Of a stretch of 64,000 bases of DNA, positions 3,993 to 27,512 are shown in pieces; within the stretch, counting starts at the first letter, position 1; each line of letters begins with the position of its first letter. The stretch is from Escherichia phage KEP1: sequence record PP047755; one strand, given 5' to 3'. The notes under the pieces are model-generated. The model worked only from the letters and a program-made list of their open reading frames with translations. It did not search any database and was not told the DNA's origin. A program made the position numbers and the translations under genes.

Positions 3993-4146
3993 TTTAACTT
4001 ACCTCTCAACTCACAATAAGAGAGTCCTAAAAAGAACCCTAGTAAGACAGAACCTATGAACAACCCAATAATACTCTCTGCCATATCTAACATCCAATAA
4101 AAAAGGTGATGTAAGCCTATCAAGACCCACATCACCTTGTCAAGTT

Positions 4147-6291
4147 TTACATAGAGACTCTATCACGAATCTCAGCGATTTTTGCATCGTTCATTCGGGA
4201 TTCGCCTTTAATCTTAGTCCACCCAAGATACCCACACACCCTGTTAATCACAGAGATATCATGTGAATGGCAAATCTCACATTCTTCGACATCAGCCTTT
4301 GGTCTGTTACCACAATGCTCACAGATTGCTAAGTCAAAGTTAAGTCCCTGATAAAAACCTTTCAACATGCCTCTTGTAATACAGCTTTTAAGTGCTGTTA
4401 AGTTTTCTGGGTTAGCTACTCTGACATACTGGATTCTACCACCTCTACAGATATGGAAGAATGGCTCTTCTAAGTCCTGCTTCTCAAATGGTGAGATGTC
4501 TGCTGCAACATTCATATGGAAACTGTTTGTAAAGTATTCCTTGTCAGAAACACCTTTGATAACACCAAACATTTCTCTGAACTGTTTTAGCTGAGTTCCA
4601 CAAAGTGATTCTGCTGGAGTACCATAGACAGCATATAAGAAGCCATCTTCATTTTTAAACTCTTCAGTTTTCATGTTGATGTATGCCAGAACATCGTATG
4701 CAAAACTAGAGCTTCCAACTTCATGAAGTCGTTTACCTTCAGCAAGAACAGATAACTCATCCAGTGCGGTAACCCCAAAAGAAGCTGTGAAGGACTTCAC
4801 GATATCCCAGCCAACCTTGTCAGTAGATTTCTTAGTCCCTTTGTACAGACCACCTTGTGTGAATGCAAGAGGGTTAGAACTTGCTGGCATATTAGCAATC
4901 ATTTCGTAGCGTTTCTTGTGGAAGCTACGAATCATCTCTAGGTACTTATCAAGCTCTTTCCAGAAATCTAAGTCATTCCCTTTAGAATACTGGTAAATCA
5001 TTGGCAAGTTCAAAGACACAGCACCAATGTTAGCACGACCAACGTAGAACTCTTCCCCATCATCATTAAGATATGGAGACAAGAAAGCTCTGCAACCCAT
5101 CGGTGAAATTACCTTACCAGAACGCTCAAAAGCCTCTGCTACAGCACCGTGACCAGATACACTTAAGAAATCTGGATACATTGCTTTAGAGCAACACTCG
5201 ATAGCTTTACTGTACAGGTGACCTTGACAGATATTTTCATCATGTCTCTTCTGGTCATAGATATAAACCAGTTTAGGGAATACAACAGGTTTTTTGCTCT
5301 TACCTTGTCCATTCATACGAACATCTAGGAGAGTACTTGCAATCATGTATTGTAGTCGGTTGTCTTCATTAGACATATCTGAGTCAAGTAGCCCAAATGT
5401 TAAAGTTGTGAATGCAAAATCACCACGGCTGCAAGGTACGGTATTTAGTTTCATCTCTAGTGACTGGAAGCCTTGAGTTAATTCAATCTGTAGCTGCTCC
5501 ATGACATAGTTATGGTAATGTTCTTTAGGAATACCGTAAGATGCTGCTTTCTCAGCATGATAGCGTAGAGACTTCTTAGCATACGGTACAAGCACCTTAT
5601 CAATCTCTGCTAAAGTAAAGCCACCAAATTGCTGTGCAGTTGCTGAAAGAACTACATCACCAATAACCTGTAAGGCTGACAGTACAGACTTCGGTTCACA
5701 GTATTCGATGCCAGACATTTCAAAGCCACCTTTCAGTACTTTACCAATGTCAAACAAGCAGCAGTTAATACCACCAAAAATTAAGTCTCTTAAGTCATGG
5801 ATGTAGATAAACCCTTTTTCAATGGCTTCAAGTTCCTCTGGTGTTAAATGGTATTGTTTAAAGATTTCTTTAGTCAGATAACCACGAATAATTGAACCTT
5901 TTGTAGAAATTAAACTGCTGTCAAAGTTGGCATTTTCACGGTCACCTAAGAAGAGTGTGTCTCTAGTCTTTTGGTAAAGCTCATCCCAATTTTGAGCAAC
6001 CTCTTTACGGTAATTTCTATATGTTGAGTAAGACTCGTAAATCTCGTGATTGACTTCTGCCAAAGCACCCTCAACAATACTGTGAATGTCATTTACCGAG
6101 ATGAGCAAATTATTCTGCTTAGTGGACTTCACCAGAATCCTCATAAATGCTGACTCAAGAGCTTGGGTAACATCTGGTGGGAGTTCTTTATACCCAACCC
6201 TGTTAGCTGACTTAGTTACTGCTGCTAAAACTTTTTTGATATCCGGTTCTTCAAGTGAGCCATTCTTTTTAATAATCTGTACTTTGTTCAT
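4147..6291 (-). CDS. nrdD: Anaerobic ribonucleoside-triphosphate reductase (class III)
   Basis: 714 aa; N-terminal ATP-cone-like region; C-terminal CxxC...CxxC zinc site followed by glycyl-radical-like motif (INRVCGYLG). Confidence 0.88.
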   Translation of the reverse strand: MNKVQIIKKNGSLEEPDIKKVLAAVTKSANRVGYKELPPDVTQALESAFMRILVKSTKQNNLLISVNDIHSIVEGALAEVNHEIYESYSTYRNYRKEVAQNWDELYQKTRDTLFLGDRENANFDSSLISTKGSIIRGYLTKEIFKQYHLTPEELEAIEKGFIYIHDLRDLIFGGINCCLFDIGKVLKGGFEMSGIEYCEPKSVLSALQVIGDVVLSATAQQFGGFTLAEIDKVLVPYAKKSLRYHAEKAASYGIPKEHYHNYVMEQLQIELTQGFQSLEMKLNTVPCSRGDFAFTTLTFGLLDSDMSNEDNRLQYMIASTLLDVRMNGQGKSKKPVVFPKLVYIYDQKRHDENICQGHLYSKAIECCSKAMYPDFLSVSGHGAVAEAFERSGKVISPMGCRAFLSPYLNDDGEEFYVGRANIGAVSLNLPMIYQYSKGNDLDFWKELDKYLEMIRSFHKKRYEMIANMPASSNPLAFTQGGLYKGTKKSTDKVGWDIVKSFTASFGVTALDELSVLAEGKRLHEVGSSSFAYDVLAYINMKTEEFKNEDGFLYAVYGTPAESLCGTQLKQFREMFGVIKGVSDKEYFTNSFHMNVAADISPFEKQDLEEPFFHICRGGRIQYVRVANPENLTALKSCITRGMLKGFYQGLNFDLAICEHCGNRPKADVEECEICHSHDISVINRVCGYLGWTKIKGESRMNDAKIAEIRDRVSM

Positions 6292-8192: not shown

Positions 8193-10398
8193 CTTGCAGT
8201 GCAGATTTACCTACACCAATGCGACTGTTAAGGTAGTACATGGTTTTCATACCTACTGAGTTGGCATAAATCATGTACTTCAAAGCTTGAGCCAATGATA
8301 CCTTTTTAGACTTTGCATAGTCAACATAGAAATCTGAAGAGATAGCTTGACCAGTGAACTTTTGAACAATTGCATAACAATCAATCAGGTCAAAGGTGTC
8401 GATATCCCAAGCAATTTCATAGACATACTTCAATTCTTCATAATCTGGAACAATAAACAGTACGTTACCAGTTGCAGACTTTTTAGTTAAAATAAAGTCA
8501 CGAATTGGATACAAGCCATTTGTCGTATTAGTTGCCAGTGAAGAACTCTCATTAGGCATGTAAGCTTCTAATACAGAGTTACGGATTCCACCATTCTCTT
8601 TAATACGTTGTGCTAAGTCATCCCAATCATAACGAAGTTTTGCATCATGCTTCTCATCAATCCTCCTGTTAGCTGTCTTCGGAGGAACCCAACCTTCAGG
8701 ATACTTAGTGAACTGTATATACTCAGGTACACCGCGTTCTTTAGCAAGTCTTAAAGAGGCTTCGTGTAAGTAGTAAGAGTGCATTTCAGCAAGCTCATGA
8801 AGCTTCGTCTTACCTGCTCTTGAAGAGTAGTTCACGTAGTTTTTTGCAAGGTAATGAGCCACATTTGTAAGGCCAATACCAACAGAACGACGCTTCTGAA
8901 CATGGTTGCGCATCGACGGATACGGATAATCCATAAGGTCAATAACGGAGTCAACCATTGCAAGAGCATAATAAGCAACATCAGCGTATTCATCTTCTGA
9001 AATTCTCCCTGCAACCAAACTAGCTAGGAAGCAAAGAGCTACCTCACCATCCTCTTTCACAGCATCGTCTCTGTAAAGGTCTGTCTCTTTCTCAAAGCCG
9101 TACACTGGCAACACAATTTCCATACAAAGATTTGACATCTTCAAAGGTTCTTTAAATGGTGTATGTGTGTTTGCATTATTCGTAAAGAATGGGTACACAC
9201 GGCCTGTTGCATAACGCTGCTGGATAAACAGTTTAGCAATTTCACGAGCCTTTACTCGTCTGTGCTTAACACCTGAATGGACTGCGTGACCAACTGCCAT
9301 AGCAAACTCATCAGCAGATGCTGTGTAGAACATGTCATAGAGCTTTGGTGCATCCTTGTAAGAGAATAGCAACCAGTCTGTATCATATTGAACACACTGC
9401 CAGAAATAATCATTTGTACCGAATGAGTAGTCCATCTCGTTAATACGTTTCGAAGGAACCGTTGTAGGGTGCTTCAAACGCAGTAAATCTTCAATCTGCG
9501 GGTCTAGAGCAGTGTAGAAGTTGTTAGCTGAACCACCACGGCTCTTCTGTTTGTTTGCCTCTACAGATGAACGTACAAGCTTGTAATAAGGCAGTTTACC
9601 CATGTGCTCAATAGTATTTTGACGGATACCATCACCAATAGTGCGAGTCTCCATCAGCATCCCAATACCAGCTTGCTTTGTAGTCATATCATAAGCAACC
9701 TTTGCAGCAATACCAAGCGATTCAGCGGTATCATTCGCCTTAATCAAACAGCATGACGCATAACCTGATTTAGTAGCTCTTAAACCGTTTAAATAAGGTG
9801 TAGGAGCGTTAATCTTCAGGTCAGATAGGTAAGTGTACAGCTTGATAACATCTTGCAGTCTACGGTGCTTTGGTTGCTTCTCAAAGGCTTTCATAGCCAT
9901 ACCCATAAACATAAATTGTGGTGACTCAAAAAGTCTTCCCGTTTTAATATCACGGATACCATACTTGTCTCTGAACTGTTTCAATACTGCATAACCGTAA
10001 GAGATATCTTTTGAGTGCACGATGTAACCTTGCAGGTATTCAAGCTCTTCCTGTGAATAATCCATCTTCTCCCAAAGTCCTGCTCTCTCCATATTCTTAA
10101 CGAAGGTAATCAGCGTAGGAACCTTAGTAAAGCCTCCAAAGGCTTCTTTGTAGATAATACCCAGAAGTAGTCGTCCAGCCATGTCTGAGTACTCTTGAGT
10201 TTGTTTATCAACACAAACATCAATCATGGCTTGGTGCATCTCTTTTGTAGTGCAACCCTCATAGACACGTTTCATGGCTTCCATAGTGACTTCTGACCAG
10301 ATGATTCCACGCTTATCTGCCCATGATGCCCACTTATTCAGTCTTTCTGGGTCAAAGCTTACTACTGTACCGTTTGATTTTTTAATTGTCTTAATCAT
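8164..10398 (-). CDS. nrdA: Ribonucleotide reductase class I large (alpha) subunit
   Basis: 744 aa; ATP-cone-like N-terminus and R1-like length; adjacent to nrdB. Confidence 0.88.
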   Translation of the reverse strand: MIKTIKKSNGTVVSFDPERLNKWASWADKRGIIWSEVTMEAMKRVYEGCTTKEMHQAMIDVCVDKQTQEYSDMAGRLLLGIIYKEAFGGFTKVPTLITFVKNMERAGLWEKMDYSQEELEYLQGYIVHSKDISYGYAVLKQFRDKYGIRDIKTGRLFESPQFMFMGMAMKAFEKQPKHRRLQDVIKLYTYLSDLKINAPTPYLNGLRATKSGYASCCLIKANDTAESLGIAAKVAYDMTTKQAGIGMLMETRTIGDGIRQNTIEHMGKLPYYKLVRSSVEANKQKSRGGSANNFYTALDPQIEDLLRLKHPTTVPSKRINEMDYSFGTNDYFWQCVQYDTDWLLFSYKDAPKLYDMFYTASADEFAMAVGHAVHSGVKHRRVKAREIAKLFIQQRYATGRVYPFFTNNANTHTPFKEPLKMSNLCMEIVLPVYGFEKETDLYRDDAVKEDGEVALCFLASLVAGRISEDEYADVAYYALAMVDSVIDLMDYPYPSMRNHVQKRRSVGIGLTNVAHYLAKNYVNYSSRAGKTKLHELAEMHSYYLHEASLRLAKERGVPEYIQFTKYPEGWVPPKTANRRIDEKHDAKLRYDWDDLAQRIKENGGIRNSVLEAYMPNESSSLATNTTNGLYPIRDFILTKKSATGNVLFIVPDYEELKYVYEIAWDIDTFDLIDCYAIVQKFTGQAISSDFYVDYAKSKKVSLAQALKYMIYANSVGMKTMYYLNSRIGVGKSALQDAYCEGCGV

Positions 10399-10444
10399 TT
10401 TTGAATCCTACAGATGAAAAGAGCCTCCGAAGAGGCTCCCTAGT

Positions 10445-10819
10445 TTAAATCTTGAAAATTTGCTCATTCTGCCACATATCGTAAAACTTATCACTTACTT
10501 TTGTGACTGAAGAAGTGTGCATACAATTCAGGGAGAACCATGATGATGTATTATCATCCATAAGTGTTTCAAGTTTTTGTGTAACGTTCACATCCATGTC
10601 TGCAACAACGTAATTACCTCGCATCTTGCAAACAATTCTTCCAAACAAGATTGCACTTCTCCCTCTTCGGTCATCACAGTACATAACTGTATCTCCGTGC
10701 TTAACGTCTTGTCCGATACTGTCAACACCTAACTTAGCACCTGAGATAATGTCATCATAAGATAACTTTTTTTGCTTTAGACACGGTATTTCTCCAAGTT
10801 TCTTTTTAGATATAACCAA
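10445..10819 (-). CDS. hypothetical protein
   Basis: 124-aa ORF. Confidence 0.5.
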   Translation of the reverse strand: MVISKKKLGEIPCLKQKKLSYDDIISGAKLGVDSIGQDVKHGDTVMYCDDRRGRSAILFGRIVCKMRGNYVVADMDVNVTQKLETLMDDNTSSWFSLNCMHTSSVTKVSDKFYDMWQNEQIFKI

Positions 10820-11109
10820 CCATAGTCTGTTCTTTCTACACCCATGAAGAGTGGAGCCATCACAACTTTACCAAAAGTATTTCTGTGTTGGCAGATTTCA
10901 AAGGAATACTCTTTTTCAATATCAATCCCATATTTGTACAGGACTGCTTTTAAAACTTGTTCATTATCCAGAAGTGTATCTGGAGTCTCACCATACTTCT
11001 CAAGTAACGGGTCATACATAAACACCGTCATAGAAATATTATAGTTTGAGAAGTGGCTCTTCTGAGCCACACCTTCTTTATTAATGTTCTGTGAATCCAT
11101 TATAACCAA
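10777..11109 (-). CDS. hypothetical protein
   Basis: 110-aa ORF. Confidence 0.45.
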   Translation of the reverse strand: MVIMDSQNINKEGVAQKSHFSNYNISMTVFMYDPLLEKYGETPDTLLDNEQVLKAVLYKYGIDIEKEYSFEICQHRNTFGKVVMAPLFMGVERTDYGWLYLKRNLEKYRV

Positions 11110-11836
11110 CCCCTTTTAACCAGCACTTCAGGTTATTAGCATCATAATTCAGTTTCGGGTATGAGGTTACATGGAACTGCTCACCATCATAGTAGACAAT
11201 ATCTGCAATCCATAGTCCATTCTCTTTACAGAAATCTTTATCTGCTTTAGAGGTAATTGGATTAACTTCTACAAAACCATCTACACCCAAATCCTTTAAG
11301 CTACCTACAATACCTTTGCAGATAACGCATGTCTCAGATACTACCACAAAAAGTTCTTGGCTTTCAAGCTCTACAATGTATTCACCAAGCTGTACTTTAG
11401 GGAGATTTGATTGCTTCATAATCTTCCCATCTGCTGCACGGACAATCGCATACCACTCTTTACCATCAACTACTGACATTCTGATGATACACTCTTGACC
11501 AGTACGCTTCTCAATATCTGCAAGACGTTTTAAAGCTTCTTCATAGTCATCTGTGTACTTCAGGTCATTATTATGACAAACAGCTTCCATAGCACCGTTA
11601 TGGTCATGTTGTGACAGATAAATCAGACCATCAAGAACATATTGCAAATCTGCCTGAGCATCCAGTGTCTCAATGGGGTCTTTCTCTTCAATTGCTTTTA
11701 CAAGCTCTTTTGCTTCTTCAAGCATACACAGAGACTGGGATTTTAAAGATTCCCAATACTCATCACTGTAAGGTTGCTTTTGGGTGTTTCCACAACGAAG
11801 ATTCCAGTTTTTTACTGCTTCTCTTGAGTTAAACAT
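11081..11836 (-). CDS. MazG-like nucleotide pyrophosphohydrolase domain fused to a C-terminal domain of unknown function
   Basis: 251 aa; N-terminal EEAKELVKAIEEKDPIETLDAQADLQYVLDGL resembles the all-alpha MazG/NTP-PPase core motif. Confidence 0.5.
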   Translation of the reverse strand: MFNSREAVKNWNLRCGNTQKQPYSDEYWESLKSQSLCMLEEAKELVKAIEEKDPIETLDAQADLQYVLDGLIYLSQHDHNGAMEAVCHNNDLKYTDDYEEALKRLADIEKRTGQECIIRMSVVDGKEWYAIVRAADGKIMKQSNLPKVQLGEYIVELESQELFVVVSETCVICKGIVGSLKDLGVDGFVEVNPITSKADKDFCKENGLWIADIVYYDGEQFHVTSYPKLNYDANNLKCWLKGVGYNGFTEH

Positions 11837-12074
11837 TCGGACTCCTTAAAAATCTGTTAACTTTTAGCTCTCGTGTTTCAATATATTCCAGATGCTCACG
11901 TAACTCTTGACGTTTAAGCATTAGGTGCTGCATTTGAGATTCAACAGCTTCAACTTCTTTAATTATTGACTCTCTGGCATTTGCAAGAGTGCGCTCAAGT
12001 TCTTCAATCTTGCTGTCAACCTTTGCTACATGACTCACAGCTTTACTTTTGTTAAACATTTTATTCTCTCTCAA
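11829..12074 (-). CDS. hypothetical coiled-coil protein
   Basis: 81 aa, heptad-like charged sequence. Confidence 0.4.
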   Translation of the reverse strand: MRENKMFNKSKAVSHVAKVDSKIEELERTLANARESIIKEVEAVESQMQHLMLKRQELREHLEYIETRELKVNRFLRSPNV

Positions 12075-12080
12075 TAGTTA

Positions 12081-12581
12081 TCAAGCACAATTTGCTTTCA
12101 TTACCTTATGGATTCTTTTTTCAGCATCTTCATAAGTTTCTTTAGTAATAAACTTAATTGCTGCAATATTGGCATTGTAGAAGAGTCTGAGCTTAGAGTC
12201 AATCCTTTTTGTCATTACATCGAATTTATGTTGGAGGTTTGCTTCACCATAAACTAGGCCACCTTTCGTGTAGTAGGTTTGGATAATGTAAAAGTCAAAA
12301 AATTCTTTTCCAAAGCTCTCAATATCTTTTTTAACATACTCAGAAGAAGTCTCATAAGTCATCCAATCACTCTCCTTAGTGACTACCTTCTTCCGAGTCT
12401 TACCAGCAACTTTTCTTTTAGTCACACTATTAAGCTGTTTCTTACCCAAATAGTACTGTCCAGTCTTTTTGCAGTACACTAGGTAGACAAAACCAAAGTG
12501 CTTTGCTGGGTCAACTTCACCACATAGTGAAATCCAATGTCCATAAGTTGGACAACTCCCAAAACCTTTAACTTTAATCAT
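12081..12581 (-). CDS. hypothetical protein (weak GIY-YIG-like motif)
   Basis: 166 aa; FVYLVYCKKTGQYYLGKK loosely resembles GIY...YIG; not convincing. Confidence 0.4.
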   Translation of the reverse strand: MIKVKGFGSCPTYGHWISLCGEVDPAKHFGFVYLVYCKKTGQYYLGKKQLNSVTKRKVAGKTRKKVVTKESDWMTYETSSEYVKKDIESFGKEFFDFYIIQTYYTKGGLVYGEANLQHKFDVMTKRIDSKLRLFYNANIAAIKFITKETYEDAEKRIHKVMKANCA

Positions 12582-13102
12582 TCATAAGCTTCTCCGTGAT
12601 TTGTAAACTCTTTATGGAGTTCTTCTCTTTTCTTTTTGACAACTAATTCAGCCTCAGCGATAGAGTCAAATAAACCTAGATGATAGCAAACTTTATTATG
12701 CTTGACTTGTGCAGCCCATCTACCTCTTTGCTTATGGTAATATACACCCTTCACACCAGATTTATTATCTCTTCTTTTGGCTGCATTACAGTTATTGTCT
12801 GACCTACTACACTCTCTCAAATTGTCGAACCAGTTGTCGTGCCTGATACCATTCTTATGGTCAACAAATTTTGGTAGGTATCCTTTCATATACAAGAATG
12901 CCAGTCTGTGTGCTGCATATCTTTTCCCGAAGAGTTTTATGTAGATATAACCACTATGATGTTTAAGACCCGCTACTGAGCCAGCTTTGGCCTTACCTTT
13001 TCTATTAACTAACCAAGTAAAGACCCCTGTTTCGGGGTCATAGTGCAGGTATTCTTTAAGAGTTTGTTGGGTTAACATTTGGTGTCCATCCATACTTATC
13101 AA
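12578..13102 (-). CDS. HNH-type homing endonuclease with AP2-like DNA-binding domain
   Basis: 174 aa; paralogue of the CDS at 22942-23475 (shared HYDPETGVFTWL, HRLAFLY, KNGIRHDN, SGVKGVYY motifs). Confidence 0.75.
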   Translation of the reverse strand: MISMDGHQMLTQQTLKEYLHYDPETGVFTWLVNRKGKAKAGSVAGLKHHSGYIYIKLFGKRYAAHRLAFLYMKGYLPKFVDHKNGIRHDNWFDNLRECSRSDNNCNAAKRRDNKSGVKGVYYHKQRGRWAAQVKHNKVCYHLGLFDSIAEAELVVKKKREELHKEFTNHGEAYE

Positions 13103-14102
13103 AAGTGAAATCGTCTTTCTTATTTCTTTCCTGATAAGCTAAGAAAAAGTGTTGCTGCATTAACTCTAAAGGTGTTCTGGTAATTGTTTGACCATCCCAC
13201 GAGACATAAGTGTATGACTCTTTCTTAGCATAAAGCTCATAAATTGCATCAAGACACTCTTTGTAAGTGGTTTTACCTTCAAGGGCTTTCATTATAGTAA
13301 CCTTACCAACACCCTTTAAACCGAAATAATTATCCGCATTATCACCAGCCACGGCTTGATAGCAAAGAAATTTAAAACCTACCCCAACTGTCTTCTTAGC
13401 TTTGGGTGTCGATTTTATTGGGCAATCCCAAATTTCACCAACGTTGTTATCAGCAATGAAAATCAAAGGTGACTTTTCATAGGTCATATCAATGCAGTAA
13501 GTCCCTTCAGCTTGGCGAAGGTCTTTATCAATACTCATCAAGGCGGCCTTTTTACCCATCTTTTCAGCTTTAGCAATAACGATAGAGTCGGCTTCAAATC
13601 CATCAAGAATTAGTTTGAACTCTGGTCTTGACAGAAGATATTCACGGCAAGCAACTAAGTGTGTTGGTGTGACAGCATCTTTACGGTTACCTTGATATTG
13701 GTGCTCAAGACCTTTAATGTCTTTATGTTTGTGTACACCTTTCTCTGTTAAGTAACCTACCCAAGTTCTTTCTTTACCAACAACCTTAAGCCATTCCTGA
13801 AGAACCTGTTGAGTAGCCATGATAGCTTCTTTTTCACTCTTAGCTTCTTTCCAAGTCTGTCTTTCCCATTCATCTTCATCAAATGCTAGGCCAAGCTCTT
13901 CTACAAGGATTCTCTGGTCTGCTAACCATCTTGCGGCATCTTTTGCATTATCAAATGGTTCAGATTCTTCTGCTGTGAGTTTATTGACATATTTATATTT
14001 TGCTTTCTCAACTACACAAGCACCTTTATAGGCAATACTATCAGAGTCAATAAAGACATGTGTAACTGAATCGGGAAGTTTTGTTAGTGTATACTTCTCC
14101 AT
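13056..14102 (-). CDS. 5'-3' exonuclease (T7 gene 6-like, FEN family)
   Basis: 348 aa; motifs HVFIDSDSIAY, SIDKDL, GDNADNYFGLKGVGKVT parallel T7 gp6 from memory. Confidence 0.65.
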   Translation of the reverse strand: MEKYTLTKLPDSVTHVFIDSDSIAYKGACVVEKAKYKYVNKLTAEESEPFDNAKDAARWLADQRILVEELGLAFDEDEWERQTWKEAKSEKEAIMATQQVLQEWLKVVGKERTWVGYLTEKGVHKHKDIKGLEHQYQGNRKDAVTPTHLVACREYLLSRPEFKLILDGFEADSIVIAKAEKMGKKAALMSIDKDLRQAEGTYCIDMTYEKSPLIFIADNNVGEIWDCPIKSTPKAKKTVGVGFKFLCYQAVAGDNADNYFGLKGVGKVTIMKALEGKTTYKECLDAIYELYAKKESYTYVSWDGQTITRTPLELMQQHFFLAYQERNKKDDFTFDKYGWTPNVNPTNS

Positions 14103-14120
14103 TGTGGCTCTCCATATGAA

Positions 14121-14147
14121 AAAGCCCCATACTAAGTACAGGGCTTT
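14121..14147 (-). terminator. Rho-independent terminator-like hairpin
   Basis: Stem AAAGCCC/GGGCTTT with 13-nt loop; U-run on the minus-strand transcript; sits just after the SSB gene. Confidence 0.5.
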
Positions 14148-14164
14148 AAAGTAACTTTTAGAGA

Positions 14165-15022
14165 TTAATCTTCTGTATCGAAGTCTTCATCTTCTTCGTC
14201 ATCTGGGTCTGGCAAGTCTTCATCGTCACCATCATCAGAATCATTAGAAGGTTTGTGGTCTTTTGCGTCTTCTTCAGTGATTTCACCGTTATCTTCAACA
14301 CCATCAAGACCAAGCATAGCCAGTTCGTCTTCATCCAGTTCAGGTTCACCGTTAGCACCGTTACCACCATTGTAAGGTACAAGAGTATCAATGATAAACT
14401 GCTCCTGAATAGGTTTTGTCAGAACATTGTTCTCAAAAGTGTAGAAGTGAGTAGAAAGAATCACACTACCAAAAGAACCGTTACCAACTGCAATGTCTGG
14501 ATGAATTACATCATAGTTCTTGTCATCTTCGTGTTTGTCAGATGCTTGAGCTTTGATTTTCTTCATCGGCTGTTTAACAGCTACACGCTTACCATTTACT
14601 TCTTCAATCAGCATTACAGGGAATGACTGTTTAGCTGTCCACACAGCACCATCTTTATAAGCTGCTGCACGACTTACTTTCAAGATGTGGTAAGTGTCTG
14701 CTTCAAATGGTGGTTTGCAACCAAACTTCTCTTCGAAGTCATCTGCATCAACTGCTTCAGTAGTAACTTTATCCCAACCTTCTGGGTTTTTCTTAGACTT
14801 AGTAAACTCTTTAAACAGTTTGTTACCATCTTCTGCCAGAATTGAAACACTATAGTTGCAGTCTTTTCCTGGGAATTTCTTATCAATGGACTTGCCTTTT
14901 CCCGGACGTGGTGAAGTGTTCAGGTAATAAAACCAGACATCTTTCAGCAGGTAACGCAGAGTTTGACGTTCAGTACCGTTGTACTTCTCTACCGGAGCTT
15001 TCATTTTAACAACTTTAGACAT
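14165..15022 (-). CDS. Single-stranded DNA-binding protein (T7 gp2.5-like) with acidic C-terminal tail
   Basis: 285 aa; C-terminus DDGDDEDLPDPDDEEDEDFDTED (acidic tail with Phe near the end, as in gp2.5-type SSBs); sits among replisome genes. Confidence 0.6.
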   Translation of the reverse strand: MSKVVKMKAPVEKYNGTERQTLRYLLKDVWFYYLNTSPRPGKGKSIDKKFPGKDCNYSVSILAEDGNKLFKEFTKSKKNPEGWDKVTTEAVDADDFEEKFGCKPPFEADTYHILKVSRAAAYKDGAVWTAKQSFPVMLIEEVNGKRVAVKQPMKKIKAQASDKHEDDKNYDVIHPDIAVGNGSFGSVILSTHFYTFENNVLTKPIQEQFIIDTLVPYNGGNGANGEPELDEDELAMLGLDGVEDNGEITEEDAKDHKPSNDSDDGDDEDLPDPDDEEDEDFDTED

Positions 15023-19290: not shown

Positions 19291-19713
19291 TTATTTCTCT
19301 CTCAGTTGGTTAAGTTTCTTTCTAGAACATTTTAAGTTTTCTGATGAAGAAAAGTCAAGTGTCTTTTCAGAACGTGGATAGTAATGCCTATCCCAAGAAG
19401 TTTCAACATCGTTAATCAGTGACGCTAGATTACACAGGTCTGTACCACTTTGCAACCTCTTTTTAAGAGAATCTAGTAAAGCAACTGTGTCTTTGGCTTT
19501 ACGTCTAGCTGTAGCAACATCTTTCATATGCTCAAATACAGAGCATTTTAAGTCATCTTCATAGTTTTCAGACAACTCTATTTCATGTTGTATATCAACC
19601 ATTCTCCTGTGATGGTGAGCATATTCCCGTTGAGCAGCAATGTCAAGTTCTTCCAACTTCTGCAAAGCTCTAACAAAGTCAGCTATGTCTGGGTGAACAA
19701 ACATTTTCTGCAT
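19291..19713 (-). CDS. hypothetical protein
   Basis: 140-aa ORF; first gene of the minus-strand block after the divergent region. Confidence 0.5.
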   Translation of the reverse strand: MQKMFVHPDIADFVRALQKLEELDIAAQREYAHHHRRMVDIQHEIELSENYEDDLKCSVFEHMKDVATARRKAKDTVALLDSLKKRLQSGTDLCNLASLINDVETSWDRHYYPRSEKTLDFSSSENLKCSRKKLNQLREK

Positions 19714-19970
19714 GTAAGCCTCTTTTAAGTAACTATTAAGTTTTAATCTTTTATCTTAACGTATTCTATACGTTATACTTTAAAGCTTTTTAAAAGCTAT
19801 TAAATAATCTTTTAAGAGTTTTAAAGTATCTGTATAGTTAAACTGTTAAGTAACCTTTTAAGTAAAAACCCACTTCGCAAAGATTAACACCTTGTCAAGT
19901 GCATTGTCAACTTGCTTTTTATAATTTTTTGCAGTAATGTATGTGGTTAATGATTTTAGAGGGAGTAAAA

Positions 19971-22113
19971 ATGGAAAACGTAGATTTTAAAAACTTACAT
20001 TTAGTTGGTGATACAGAAACTGATGGTTTACTCCTTGAGTTCACTAAAGTGCACGTAATGGCTTTCGCAGACTATAAATCTGACGATGAAGAGCCACCTG
20101 TATGGGTCTTTACAGATGAGCCTATCCTCGGTCACAAGTATACCAAGTACATTAAGGGTGGTTTGCGTGAAGGTGTTGAGTTTGCGTTAAAGGCGAAACG
20201 TCTTTGCATCCATAATGGTCTCGGTTATGACTGGTGGGTTTTCAATCACATTGCACCTGATTTATGGAACTTTGATAATCCAAAGTGTAAACCGTGGAGT
20301 AATTTCTTTCAGGATTCTCTTATCCAGTCTCGTGTTCAGTGGATGGATAGGCCAACTCCAAAGGGTTATAAAGGTGCTCATGGCTTGGCTGCATGGGGTG
20401 CTCGTGTTGGTGTTCGTAAACCAGAGATTGAGCATTGGGGTGTATGGAATGCAGAAATCTTCACTCGTGTTGTAGAAGATATTCGTATTAACGCCAAAAC
20501 TAAACGGGCACTTGATAATGAGTATCTCAAGCTTAAGAAGTGTGGCATAGACACTTATGAAACCTATATGCGAGCTAAAGAAACATCTTTCTGGATGAGT
20601 CAACAAGCTATCAATGGTTGGAAAGCTGATAAAGAGCTTATGGAGTTTCATGTAAAGGAGCTTGACAAGTTGACTAATGAGCTTGCTTCAGAGGTTGAAC
20701 CACATCTACCTCCAACTATTAAGACCAAAGGTAAAGTCACTGGAGAAGAATTTGCAAAAGCTTGGAATGAGTATGTTGAAACATTTGGTCATGCAGATGG
20801 ACTGAAAAGAATTACCAAGTATCCTAAGACAAAGTATCGTCAACAGGTGCGTAACGGTGAGATGCAGACATACGAAATCAAGCCATTTGGTAAGCCAACT
20901 ACAAAGATTTTTAACATTGAAAAGAGAAATTGCTATACACCAACCAACTCTGTAACTGGTGAAGAGTACAAGGAAGGTTTTGTAGCAATGAAGGATGCTC
21001 GTGCAATTTGCAATGAGTTGAATGCAAAGATTGGTAAGAAGTGCAAAGACTGGAAGCCAGTAAAAACAGTTAAAACTGTGAAGTACTATAACAGCCATGT
21101 CGTTAACCACTTTGAGCTTGAGTCAAGTCGCTACACAGGTTTGATTGATGCACCATATACACCAATTGAGTTCGAAGTTTCTCGTATGACTCAGGTAGCA
21201 GTTGTTAAAGACTACTTGAAATCAGTTGGTTGGATTCCAGATGACTGGAACTATAAGAAAGACTCAGATGGCCGTCCTGTTAAGGTTTGTCGTTTCAAAG
21301 ACAACAAAAAGAGGATTACTAAGCACCCTAAATGGGATGAGATGGTTGAACGGTGTGGTTTGAGTTATGTTGAACATGAAGGTGTACAGTACATAGAGCA
21401 TAACTGGTCTGTTAAGAAATACACAGATTTGCTTGAACCTTGCTTAATCCGTACTTCACCAAAACTTACTGAATCATCTTATGATACGATTGAAGGTGAG
21501 CTTGGACAGAAGATTGCTAAGTACTATACTTTGATGCACAGACGTAGAACTATTGAGAACTCAAAGGATGATGAAAAAGGTTGGTTGAACCAGATTCGTC
21601 CTGATGGTCGCCTTAGTGCTGGCGCAATGGTGTTTGGTACTTCAACTGGACGTATGACACAATATGGTATTGTAAACGTACCGTCTGGTGCTGCTGTCTA
21701 TGGAGCACCTATGAGGGAGGTGTGGATTTGCGAGGAGGGGACTAATATCGTTTCAGTTGACCAGAACTCTGCACAGCTAGTTCTTCTTTGTAACTTTATG
21801 GGTGACAAAGACTTCACTAAAGCGGTAACTGAGGGTAAAGAGTCAGTAGAGTTCACTAAGCAAGATGACGGTAGATACTATTGCAAGCATCTCGATAAGT
21901 ATCTTAATCCAGAAACTGACAAGTATCTTCGTTATGATGCTGAGAACGACCTCTACGAAGTCTACACAGGGACTGATGCGCATACACTGAACAGTATTTA
22001 CTTTGGTCTGAACAAGGAAGAAGACATTGTTCGTTGTAGGGAGACACAGGATGAGGAACTTCTCCACGAGATTACAAAAGGTCGTAAGAAAGCCAAAAAT
22101 GGCATTTATGCGT
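19971..22113 (+). CDS. DNA polymerase (family A, T7 gp5-like), exon 1 (ORF-track frame 19941-22154 reads through into the intervening sequence)
   Basis: Start at MENVDF after GGGAG RBS; T7 gp5-like motifs HNGLGYDWW, AHGLAAWGARVG, motif A-like VSVDQNSAQL; coding sense ends in motif B at KAKNGIYA. Confidence 0.75.
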
Positions 22114-22381
22114 CAGTGGCGCATGTAAAACGTTGTGAATTGCTGGAAGCCTAAGTCTGTAAAGATATGGTAATCAGCAGCGAAGCCTCTTAAGAGGAAC
22201 GTTCAGAGACTATCGAAAAGCATACTTAACGTATGAACTGAGTAGAGTAGGGTGGTAAGCTAATGACCATTCCCAAGTGCAACGGTAGTATTACTACTAC
22301 GTGATATAGTCCGACACTCCGTAGAAATGCGGAGAAGTTCATAAGAGAACTGGTACACCTTGCGAGTGTATTGACCAGATG
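22114..22381 (+). other. Intervening sequence splitting the DNA polymerase gene; probable self-splicing (group-I-like) intron, boundaries approximate
   Basis: Exon 1 stops inside motif B; exon 2 resumes with LFGAGDEK in another frame; about 270 nt between, with stops in the exon frames; proposed junction follows a T (22113) and the intron ends on a G (22381), giving IYALLFGAGDEK. Confidence 0.5.
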
Positions 22382-22938
22382 TATTGTTCGGTGCAGGTGA
22401 TGAGAAGTTTGCAAAAACTATCAAGGCATCATCTACGGAAGAAGGTGCATTGACTAAACAAACTTACTATATGCGTCTGCCAAAGATTAAGAAGTTACTT
22501 GATAGCTTAGAAGCCGATTTTAAGGCGTCTAAAAAGGCTCTGGAAGAGGTTTTTGGGAAGAATTCTTCAATTGCTAAAGGTGGTTATATCAGGGTCGCTG
22601 GAGCATGGATATGGTGCAAATCTCCACATAAACTACTGAACTACCTCCTGATGAGTTCGGAAGCACAGATTCAGAATGAGGCCATCAACCTAGCAGCAAG
22701 AAAAGCCTGTGAAGATGGCCTGACAAAACTGAATGCTCGAAAACCAGCTATCGGAGCAAGGTTACTTCTGGCATATCACGATGAAAATAGTTGGGAATGT
22801 CCAGAGGGTATGACACATGATATGAAAGCAATTGCTGACTGGATGTATGGACAAGCTTCAAAAAACTTAGGTTTGAGGAAAGAAACACTTGTAACTGGTA
22901 CAGCAAAGGTTGGTAAGAGCTGGTATGAGGTACATTGA
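22382..22938 (+). CDS. DNA polymerase (family A), exon 2 / C-terminal part (motif B remainder and motif C)
   Basis: ORF track 22384-22938 starts at a TTG; LFGAGDEKFAKTI continues motif B; LLAYHDENSWECPEG matches the Pol A motif C HDE. Confidence 0.7.
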
Positions 22939-22941
22939 TTA

Positions 22942-23475
22942 ATGGATTTAATTTTACAAAAACGTTTAAAGGAGCTGCTGCACTATGACCCCGAAACAGG
23001 GGTCTTTACTTGGCTTCGTAGAGAAGGTAAATCAAGAGCTGTTAGTGTTTTTAACAGTAATTATGCAGGAAAGGTGGCAGGTAATATCCAGACTGATTCA
23101 AGTGGTCATAAACAGATTAGTATCTATTTTGACAAGAAAGCACATAAAGCACACAGACTCGCATGGCTTTACGTGTATGGCAAGATGCCAAAAGGTATCA
23201 TTGACCATATCAACGGAGACTCACTTGACAACAGGATTGTAAACTTAAGGGAAGCAGATGACTTTCAAAGTGCTTGGAATAAAGGTAAGCTAGTCACCAA
23301 TAAATCTGGGTACAAGGGTGTAAGTCTTAAGAAGAAGTCTGGTAAGTGGGTCGCACAGATAAGTTATAGAGGTAAGAAGATGTTTTTAGGTTATCATGAC
23401 ACACCTGAAGAAGCCCATAAAGCTTACTGTAAAGCTGCTGTGAAACTCCACGGAGAGTTTGCAAAACTAAGTTGA
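22942..23475 (+). CDS. HNH-type homing endonuclease with AP2-like domain (free-standing, immediately downstream of the DNA polymerase)
   Basis: 177 aa; paralogue of 12578-13102; His/Asn pattern DHINGDSLDNRIVNLRE. Confidence 0.75.
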   Translation: MDLILQKRLKELLHYDPETGVFTWLRREGKSRAVSVFNSNYAGKVAGNIQTDSSGHKQISIYFDKKAHKAHRLAWLYVYGKMPKGIIDHINGDSLDNRIVNLREADDFQSAWNKGKLVTNKSGYKGVSLKKKSGKWVAQISYRGKKMFLGYHDTPEEAHKAYCKAAVKLHGEFAKLS

Positions 23476-26168: not shown

Positions 26169-26196
26169 TTGACATAGAAAATTTGGTGAGTATACT
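26169..26196 (+). promoter_or_regulatory. Sigma70-like promoter (TTGACA - 16 nt - TATACT)
   Basis: Near-consensus -35 and -10 hexamers with 16-nt spacer. Confidence 0.55.
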
Positions 26197-26310
26197 GAGC
26201 AGCATAAACCAACAGGTACTCACCAGCATCACTTAAGAGTCTTTCTAAGAGGGTTTTTAAGTGATGTCCGGTCGGGTGAGGTAGGGTTAAGTATTGTCCG
26301 GTACGGTCGG

Positions 26311-26350
26311 GTAAAGTACGGTACGGTAAGGTAAAGTACGGTATGGTAAG
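26311..26350. repeat. 20-bp tandem direct repeat x2 within a GT-rich non-coding region
   Basis: GTAAAGTACGGTACGGTAAG followed by GTAAAGTACGGTATGGTAAG; flanked by further GGTA/CGGT-rich sequence (26270-26380, 26440-26500). Confidence 0.7.
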
Positions 26351-26549
26351 GCAAGGCTAGGTCTGGTATGGGTAGTTAGTCTCAGCTACATTAAAATGAG
26401 ACTTACCTTTTTAAAAGGTCTTTAAGAGGGTCTTTTAACAAGGCGGGGTGCGGCTCGGTCTGGTTGTGTGAGGTTCTGTTTGGCTAGGTAAGGTATGGAA
26501 GGATGGCAGTAGCCTTATAAAAAATCTGCCAAATAAGCTATAAAATCTG

Positions 26550-26578
26550 TTGACAAGTCAGGTGTTATAGCTTATTTT
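26550..26578 (+). promoter_or_regulatory. Sigma70-like promoter (TTGACA - 17 nt - TATTTT) upstream of the 26623 gene
   Basis: Consensus -35, 17-nt spacer, A/T-rich -10; shares CTGTTGACA with the 26169 promoter. Confidence 0.5.
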
Positions 26579-27007: not shown

Positions 27008-27220
27008 ATGGCTCTTAAAAAGTTACATCCCAGAAGCGGTTATGGTAAGATAATTGATGATACAGACGGCTTTACAGTCTTTACAGTTATCTGTCAAGAT
27101 GATTCACAGATTGAAAAGATTCTTGACGATTATCTTAACGATGAACGTGAAAAGGTTAGGGCTACAAACATAGATTCATTGATTGACACTTCACGCAAAC
27201 GGAAGAAGAAAGATGAATGA
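27008..27220 (+). CDS. hypothetical protein
   Basis: 70-aa ORF. Confidence 0.45.
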   Translation: MALKKLHPRSGYGKIIDDTDGFTVFTVICQDDSQIEKILDDYLNDEREKVRATNIDSLIDTSRKRKKKDE

Positions 27221-27512
27221 GGTTTTTGACCCTTATGCTCCACAAGATGATTGGGAGGCTGACAGAGAGGCTGAAATGGAGAGTTATATTTGTCCAATGG
27301 ATGTAGACGAAATGAGAGACTTCGTTGCACATCGTTTTAAGAGAGAGATTAAGTCCAGAGGTCTTTCTCAAGAGCAAGTTGCTAAAATTTGTGGTATCTC
27401 TCAGGCTCGTGTATCCAACATAATCCACCTCACTGGTAATGTCTCGCTTGAGTATATGTTGGAAGTATGCGAAAAATTCGGTGTTAATTTTAATTTAAGG
27501 CTGGCAGATTAA
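27183..27512 (+). CDS. Helix-turn-helix DNA-binding protein
   Basis: 109 aa; LSQEQVAKICGISQARVSNI is an HTH-like segment. Confidence 0.5.
   Translation: MTLHANGRRKMNEVFDPYAPQDDWEADREAEMESYICPMDVDEMRDFVAHRFKREIKSRGLSQEQVAKICGISQARVSNIIHLTGNVSLEYMLEVCEKFGVNFNLRLAD

Follow-up and report, generated by a model that had tools for sequence, protein, structure and literature searches.

Canonical sigma70 promoters of Escherichia coli with an UP-like A-tract, as found at the early genes of coliphages dependent on host RNA polymerase, combine TTGACA at -35 with a spacer of 17-18 nucleotides (nt) and a -10 element that keeps T-12, A-11 and T-7. The lambda CII (P22 C1) promoters PRE, PI and PaQ form a set of three with weak core elements, at which a direct repeat starting with TTG (TTGC-N6-TTGC, at a fixed period of 10 bp) straddles a poor -35. 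The MotA/AsiA middle promoters of T4, which define a temporal class of this virulent myovirus, join a TAnnnT -10 to a second upstream element, the MotA box (a/t)(a/t)(a/t)TGCTTtA, which is centred at -30 and replaces the -35. At lac (P2 versus P1) and gal (P1/P2), two docking registers of polymerase lie within about a dozen bp, one of them being unproductive or weaker. Here we analyse a 24-bp motif with resemblances to each of these systems in a stretch of 64,000 nt from Escherichia phage KEP1 (record PP047755; this whole stretch is hereafter the window). The motif occurs twice, as CACCTTGTCAAGTGCATTGTCAAC (19888-19911, site 1) and CACCTTGTCAAGTACTTTGTCAAC (62026-62049, site 2) in plus-strand letters. 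We estimate at roughly 0.72 the probability that its copies are the cores of host sigma70-dependent promoters firing on the minus strand of the window.

A preliminary description of this DNA, made from the letters alone, had noted the two 24-mers as tandem TTGTCAA half-sites lying between diverging minus-strand and plus-strand gene blocks. Both observations were confirmed for the window. The 24-mers are identical at 22 of 24 positions, they are the sole matches in the 64-kb window at up to three mismatches, and no match appeared in 100 dinucleotide-preserving shuffles. Both are intergenic, site 1 between the gene 19291-19713 (minus strand) and the DNA polymerase gene (plus strand), and site 2 between the gene 61527-61898 (minus strand) and small plus-strand genes. 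The reverse complement of TTGTCAA is TTGACAA, which holds the perfect sigma70 -35 hexamer TTGACA. The minus strand carries two such perfect hexamers, indicating that the half-sites are host sigma70 -35 hexamers facing the minus-strand blocks. Read on this strand, both sites follow the order A-rich tract, TTGACA, six nucleotides, TTGACA and AGGTG. AGGTG is followed by TAGGCT at site 2 and, one base farther, by TAATCT at site 1. The elements are as follows.

19888..19911, minus strand: tandem-hexamer core of site 1, minus-strand letters GTTGACAATGCACTTGACAAGGTG
19905..19910, minus strand: hexamer 1 of site 1, putative -35, 18 nt from TAATCT, invariant in 6 haplotypes
19893..19898, minus strand: hexamer 2 of site 1, within the promoter spacer, invariant; the 6 nt between the hexamers vary
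19881..19886, minus strand: putative -10 of site 1, TAATCT (TAGTCT in Sf19), preceded by TGT in the manner of an extended -10; positions 1, 2 and 6 invariant
19911..19930, minus strand: A-rich tract AAAAAATTATAAAAAGCAAG, UP-element-like, upstream of hexamer 1 of site 1
62026..62049, minus strand: tandem-hexamer core of site 2, minus-strand letters GTTGACAAAGTACTTGACAAGGTG
62043..62048, minus strand: hexamer 1 of site 2, putative -35, the start of the published Felix O1 'P41'
62031..62036, minus strand: hexamer 2 of site 2, in the spacer; in the ASO1B record the -35 of TTGACA-N15-AATACT
62020..62025, minus strand: putative -10 of site 2, TAGGCT, 17 nt after hexamer 1; relatives carry TAGCCT, TAAGTT or TAGTGT

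By sequence identity, the window is that of a Felix O1-like phage (Felixounavirus, Ounavirinae), its nearest relatives being about 260-300 such phages at 95-99% identity, followed by Suspvirus (about 83-87%) and Mooglevirus (about 78-84%); Kolesnikvirus and the Pectobacterium, Yersinia and Hafnia phages show less than 70%. Felix O1-like genomes measure about 86-90 kb, of which the window represents about three quarters, in the reverse complement of the conventional Felix O1 orientation, so that the minus strand of the window is the standard plus strand. The exact arrangement TTGACA-N6/7-TTGACA was found three times per complete genome (AYO145A and SUSP1), against 0.09 expected from a first-order Markov simulation. 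The third tandem site (site 3; AYO145A 13453, N7) lies in the early region beyond the window and away from any divergent junction. The placement at divergence points, accurate for the two window sites, is therefore not a defining property of the motif. All three tandem sites share one strand, long intergenic regions and, ahead of the hexamers, an A-rich tract. Homology is also evident among their leaders (...CGAAGTGGGTTTTTACTTAAAAGG... and ...CGAGGGGGTTTATCTAAAAGG...), and for the two junctions of the window it reaches about 100 bp into the downstream leader.

For the conservation analysis, relatives were drawn from IMG/VR via anchors in the flanking leaders instead of the motif, since selection on the motif itself was to be avoided, and annotated genomes were added. 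The distinct haplotypes numbered 6, 11 and 13 for sites 1 to 3 (30 in total). Hexamer 1 was TTGACA at 6/6 positions at all sites and in all 30 haplotypes. The two hexamers together contained no variable column (0/36), against 32 of the 64 inter-hexamer, post-hexamer and 10 upstream columns (Fisher p = 1.6e-8); hexamer 2 alone contained 0/18, against 22/34 for its immediate neighbours (p = 2.8e-6); and positions 1, 2 and 6 of the -10 contained 0/9, against 6/9 for positions 3-5 (p = 0.009), all of these p-values overstating independence because the haplotypes are phylogenetically related. The inter-hexamer bases of site 2 vary freely (AAGTAC, AAGGAC, AAGCAC, TTCCTC, AATGAC, AGCCTC, AGGGGA). Conservation is limited precisely to the -35 hexamer, no flanking base being common to all sites. 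Judged by this variation, the alignments show both hexamers to be under strong purifying selection.

The register of the promoter was read from the outgroup Ounavirinae, in which the orthologous intergenic regions carry one TTGACA, a spacer of 17-18 nt and TAnnnT.

Wc4, site 1: TTGACA-17-TAGGCT
SB18 and phiEa104, site 1: TTGACA-17/18-TACATT
P778, site 2: TTGACA-17-TAAAGT
Wc4-1, site 2: TTGACA-18-TGaTACCCT

This comparison was made by eye on the hexamers, MAFFT across all genera having misaligned the promoter part of site 1. The downstream leaders do align, indicating that the single hexamers of the outgroups are the counterpart of the upstream hexamer of the window, and hexamer 1 of site 1 lines up with the lone TTGACA of phiEa104, SB18 and Wc4. 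From the distance of 17-18 nt between this single TTGACA and TAnnnT, the upstream hexamer is taken as the -35 and TAnnCT as the -10. The spacer measures 18 nt at site 1; at site 2, at site 3 and at the two sites of the Hafnia phage SarahDanielle it measures 17 nt. In the latter phage the hexamers are closer together, as TTGACA-GAAC-TTGACA-AGAGGTT-TAATGT (N4) at site 1 and TTGACA-AACAC-TTGACA-TACCCT-TACTCT (N5) at site 2. With N6, N6 and N7 in the Felix clade, the hexamer-to-hexamer offset ranges over 10-13 bp (periods 10, 11, 12, 12 and 13), while the distance from hexamer 1 to the -10 stays at 17-18 nt at every tandem site. Hexamer 1 also shares its AAAAAGTTGTTGACA context with the best canonical promoters of the phage, and the same A-rich context is present at its best single-hexamer promoters. 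On these alignments, the minus-strand architecture is shown to be of the sigma70 type in its sequence elements, with hexamer 1 as the -35, TAnnCT as the putative -10 and hexamer 2 inside the spacer. In the Yersinia phage P778, the lone -35 of site 2 lies within the palindrome TGTCAA-GAC-TTGACA; these back-to-back -35 hexamers could serve both divergent directions.

The preliminary description had also offered an operator of two direct-repeat half-sites with a 12-bp period. This proposal is weakened by the periods of 10-13 bp and by the restriction of conservation to the -35 bases; an operator of fixed 12-bp period with a rigid dimer is unlikely, because the offset floats over 10-13 bp at constant -35/-10 spacing.

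Compared with the systems described at the outset, the motif departs from canonical sigma70 promoters in its second TTGACA, placed in the spacer and conserved across genera, and in its weak -10 (3/6). It differs from the CII promoters in that the repeat is the full TTGACA with a period of 10-13 bp and spans -35 to about -18, the -35 itself being perfect. A CII-type promoter was rejected because the motif has neither TTGC tetrads nor a fixed period of 10 bp nor a poor -35. No CII-like protein was found among five window proteins scanned (the helix-turn-helix, HTH, protein discussed below matched HTH_3-type families, not Phage_CII) or in the annotations of relatives. Unlike MotA promoters, the motif keeps a perfect -35, its extra element being a second -35 copy centred at about -21. 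A MotA-type middle promoter was likewise rejected, since the -30 position falls within TTGACA or beside it and the strand of the transcribed direction carries no TGCTT box. Neither MotA nor AsiA is annotated in AYO145A or SUSP1, no systematic proteome scan having been made for them. The lac and gal registers were defined experimentally and are CRP-controlled, whereas the putative second register of the motif has no -10.

According to the proposed mechanism, the site 1 promoter would head the unit from the gene 19713..19291 to dNMP (deoxynucleoside monophosphate) kinase, primase/helicase and nrd genes, and the site 2 promoter would head the unit that starts with the DUF5681 gene and continues across the tRNAs as far as the structural genes. 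In more complete form, the minus-strand block of site 1 begins with the 140-aa gene (19713..19291), followed by dNMP kinase, primase-helicase, exonuclease and nrd, and that of site 2 comprises the DUF5681 gene (61898..61527), a DUF2828/DUF7788 gene, the tRNA cluster, the terminase and the structural genes. Each promoter would combine an A-rich UP-like tract, a perfect -35, a spacer of 17-18 nt and a weak -10 that keeps the key positions (TAnnCT). We infer that the host sigma70 holoenzyme would be used, with transcription starting near 19874 and 62012 to yield long AT-rich leaders of about 160 and 114 nt, respectively.

The role of hexamer 2 is a separate question. We tentatively suggest, giving the idea somewhat less than even chances, that it provides an alternative docking register for sigma70 region 4, tuning polymerase occupancy at promoters with a weak -10, either by capture of RNA polymerase or by competition. 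Sigma70 region 4 is the most economical choice of reader, because the conserved bases are exactly those of the -35 consensus and their position is not fixed. A second start may in addition arise from hexamer 2 of site 2 via AATACT or AACACT at N15-16. A wider version of the docking idea, which we regard as possible though doubtful, is that the TTGACA in the spacer is a dedicated regulatory device, a -35 decoy or docking site that marks a set of three promoters of major transcription units. Transcription would then be timed or metered by whatever reads it, be it sigma70 region 4, a host polymerase in modified form or a phage factor. If correct, this would answer a question raised by the Felix O1 genome paper, namely how temporal control is achieved in a phage that has neither its own polymerase nor a known sigma-modifying protein.

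Besides the relatedness of the haplotypes behind the Fisher tests, several points weigh against the sigma70 reading of the motif and of its second hexamer. The -10 elements TAATCT, TAGGCT and TAACTT match TATAAT at only 3/6, under the scan threshold, and the consensus promoter scan did not call these minus-strand promoters for this reason. The suggested reading of hexamer 2 by sigma region 4 is based on the boundaries of conservation and the variable offset. At sites 1 and 3, hexamer 2 is without a cognate -10. No transcription start site (TSS) or RNA-seq study usable for Felixounavirus was found in the literature.

The lack of a cognate -10 at sites 1 and 3 also indicates that a simple second promoter does not explain hexamer 2. 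Two overlapping sigma70 promoters, with each hexamer serving as a -35 and starts about 12 nt apart, are improbable as a general explanation and plausible only at site 2, where AATACT stands at N15 after hexamer 2 (AACACT at N16 in variants) and where the ASO1B annotators called a promoter. Sigma70 works poorly with a spacer of 15 nt. At the other sites, the hexamers found 16-18 nt after hexamer 2 are AAGTGG, GGGGGT, ACATGG and TTGTAG (sites 1 and 3 and Hafnia), none of which is -10-like; at site 1 in particular no -10-like hexamer was detected at this distance.

An operator reading has more in its favour, and we consider it unlikely. Hexamer 2, alone or together with hexamer 1, would in this case be bound in the spacer by a phage or host regulator switching the three promoters on or off at a set time, and the main transcription units would then be headed by a small regulon. 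This reading agrees with the strict conservation of a hexamer that is not needed as a -35 and is common to three promoters, with the single reverse transcription-PCR (RT-PCR) class shared by genes downstream of both window sites, and with the geometry of site 1, at which a bound protein would cover -37 to -60 of the divergent polymerase promoter. Against it, conservation halts at the borders of the -35 consensus, and a rigid dimer could not occupy both repeats at offsets that vary over 10-13 bp.

The window encodes a candidate for such a regulator, already named in the preliminary description, the HTH protein 27213-27512, which carries a Cro/C1-type HTH_3 (XRE-type) domain and has a PezA-type XRE domain as its nearest solved relative. 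By tblastn it was detected in Felixounavirus, Suspvirus and Mooglevirus only, in agreement with the lack of tandem hexamers in Kolesnikvirus, Wc4 and P778 and thus in favour of an operator. The same search detected no homologue in Hafnia phages, yet the one Hafnia phage examined carries tandem hexamers, so that the co-occurrence breaks down there and was rejected as an argument. XRE proteins usually bind inverted repeats, and the promoter of the HTH operon itself lacks the tandem motif, having a single hexamer. An XRE/Cro-type operator, with inverted half-sites at fixed spacing that usually occur beside the gene of the regulator too, was rejected because the repeats of the motif are direct and variably spaced and the repeat at the HTH promoter is a different one. 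Mimicry of sigma70 region 4 by the HTH protein was also rejected. Its Pfam Sigma70_r4 match is sub-threshold (21.8 versus 24.1 bits), BLASTP against region 4 of E. coli sigma70 gave no alignment, and the nearest structure is of the PezA type as stated. The case for this protein as the motif's reader is weak.

The HTH operon has a feature of its own. At 26531-26577 (plus strand), its -35 lies between the arms of a 19-nt inverted repeat, AAATAAGCTATAAAATCTG / CAGGTGTTATAGCTTATTT, in a loop of 9 nt. The arms are 89% complementary, and the repeat is a candidate autoregulatory operator or promoter-in-hairpin cassette.

On the plus strand, the preliminary description had considered a phage-specific promoter for the DNA polymerase and right-end genes. 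Its choice of a promoter was right in kind and wrong in strand; the phage-specific part is contradicted by the identity of the half-sites with host -35 hexamers 17-18 nt from a -10. Each junction has its own conserved sigma70-like plus-strand promoter, separate from the motif.

19912..19940, plus strand: candidate sigma70 promoter of the DNA polymerase gene, TTGCTT-17-TAATGT, conserved in SUSP1
62074..62102, plus strand: sigma70-like promoter of the right-hand small genes, TTGACT-17-TACCAT, conserved in SUSP1 and Sf19

In Sf19 the polymerase promoter reads TTGCTT-17-TAGGGT. It stands back-to-back with site 1, the -35 boxes being 1 bp apart, and its -35 overlaps the A-rich tract of site 1. The two plus-strand promoters lie at different distances from the motif, indicating that the motif is not a common plus-strand element. 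A phage-specific signal acting on this strand is thus hardly credible: the motif is upstream of plus-strand genes at both sites, but site 3 lies away from any divergence point, no phage RNA polymerase has been reported, and on this strand the hexamers match at only 5/6 with no consistently spaced -10. As had been noticed earlier, the spacing to TATAAT-like hexamers is non-canonical, TATAAT at 19920-19925 lying 10 and 22 nt from the TTGTCA hexamers. A plus-strand sigma70 promoter using TTGTCA was rejected on these spacings, on the poor conservation of this TATAAT, which is not retained in SUSP1 or Sf19, and on the absence of any scan hit over the site 1 motif. At site 2, a borderline scan match with the upstream hexamer as -35 (TTGTCA-18-AATAGT with TG, 9/12) was discounted, since site 1 has no equivalent. 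A PhoB Pho box (two CTGTCAT repeats with an 11-bp period, some 10 bp ahead of a -10) was rejected as well: the period is 12 here and 10-13 elsewhere, and a conserved -10 is missing, the TATAAT at 19920 being absent in SUSP1 and Sf19 and without a site 2 equivalent.

Downstream of the minus-strand promoters, the following leaders would be transcribed.

19714..19874, minus strand: putative 5' leader of site 1, about 160 nt, 78.7% AT, toward the block of gene 19713..19291, with CTTAAAAG repeats
61899..62012, minus strand: putative 5' leader of site 2, about 114 nt, 70.2% AT, toward the DUF5681 gene block

Together they hold 6 of the 13 CTTAAAAG/CTTTTAAG octamers of the window, and the elements ACTTAAAAGG and TTAACAG/AAACAGAT are common to them and to the leaders of distant Ounavirinae. 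A long hairpin is predicted for the site 2 leader, which folds better than shuffled sequences (z = -3.1). The site 1 leader contains small hairpins at 19758-19774 and 19784-19798 that are paired across genera, a compensatory C-G to T-A change being found in Sf19 for AACGTAT-TCT-ATACGTT and a U.G-compatible variant in SUSP1 for AGCTTTT-T-AAAAGCT. Pairing kept across genera favours RNA structure over a DNA operator, and control at the RNA level, through antitermination, processing or translation, may take place in the leaders. No known RNA family was found above noise in either junction.

The untranslated regions bear on one more explanation, in which promoter and AT-rich region form a transcription-activated replication origin like T4 oriF/oriG or the T7 primary origin, with the tandem hexamers loading RNA polymerase for a primer or R-loop. 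Their length of 114-160 nt and AT content of 70-79% in a compact genome, the position of site 1 between the polymerase and primase/helicase blocks, the several copies per genome and the turn of cumulative GC skew at about 20 kb are all compatible with such an origin. The skew turn coincides with the change of gene strand, which explains it, each leader runs into an ordinary ribosome-binding site and gene, and no iterons or DnaA boxes were seen. An origin is a very improbable explanation.

The sigma70-type promoters proposed here had been predicted in part. 'P41' of Felix O1 (21515-21541; Whichard et al. 2010, PMC3185647) has its first base at the start of the upstream hexamer of site 2. Sigma70-type promoters are annotated at these positions in the records of AYO145A and ASO1B too, AYO145A combining hexamer 1 with TAATCT at site 1. 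Among the -10 choices made in these predictions, N15 TATAGG and N23 TATAAA are specific to single phages or imply an impossible spacing. According to the Felix O1 paper, the 40-41 and 96-97 intergenic regions contain no other recognisable promoter (PMC3185647). These in-silico predictions concern the same DNA, but the tandem layout, the third site, the clade distribution and the conservation footprint were not noted in them, and no description of a conserved second -35 hexamer in the spacer was found for this phage group in the searchable literature. The host-type promoters were thus partly predicted before, and the tandem -35 arrangement appears to be undescribed.

The Felix O1 group is reported to encode no RNA polymerase, and its temporal regulation has been described as not understood (PMC3185647). 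In published end-point RT-PCR, the only expression data found, transcripts of ORFs (open reading frames) 41, 42, 96, 97 and 98 were maximal at 25 min and those of replication genes were detectable from 5 min. A single class for the two window promoters would agree with this timing, which is too coarse to serve as proof.

Felix O1 and its relatives are classic Salmonella-typing phages in wide use for biocontrol and therapy, and their transcription programme is essentially unmapped. For three paralogous promoters heading main transcription units, strand, register and boundaries are now fixed, and one strongly selected feature, the second -35 box within the spacer, is singled out. If this box tunes the use of host polymerase, promoter design would gain a simple new element; otherwise, the annotation of several hundred sequenced phages is still corrected.

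A single-hexamer relative of the motif is found elsewhere in the window.

4133..4145, minus strand: 13-mer ACTTGACAAGGTG after nrdD, part of TTGACA-18-TAGGCT

This promoter-like sequence lies inside an intrinsic terminator hairpin, GGTGATGT...ACATCACC followed by TTTTTT (window 4080-4160, minus strand), forming a terminator/promoter cassette which has the 13-mer in common with the tandem motif. Near-matches in the early region, AAAGTACTTTACAAGGGG, were rejected as extra copies of the motif, since they represent another element, a TTTACA-17-TAAAGT promoter in a GGGGCTTA/TAAGCCCC hairpin. In AYO145A 9224-14565, beyond the window, small early genes alternate with near-identical cassettes of about 90 bp, resembling the promoter-stem-loop cassettes of T4-type phages. 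Each contains this promoter, set in a hairpin of either GGGGCTTA...TAAGCCCC or GGGGAGGGAAT...CCTTCCCC, together with a ribosome-binding region that is conserved. Some of them are listed in the Felix O1 paper as direct repeats only (PMC3185647).

Further features of the window were noted in the plus-strand region beyond site 1. A group I catalytic intron was identified in the DNA polymerase gene at 22051-22334 (plus strand; Rfam RF00028, 64.2 bits, gathering 50, E = 1.4e-15), and the polymerase appears for this reason as two ORFs (to 22154; 22384-22938). The second of these is followed by an HNH/homing endonuclease ORF (22942-23475), and the polymerase gene of AYO145A is uninterrupted. At 26270-26500, a G/T-rich non-coding stretch includes a tandem array (26299-26351) of CGGTACGGTAAGGTAAAGTA repeated 2.7 times, with an underlying 5-nt CGGTA period, and lies between sigma70-like promoters, TTGACA-16-TATACT (about 26170-26200) on one side and TTGACA at 26550 on the other.

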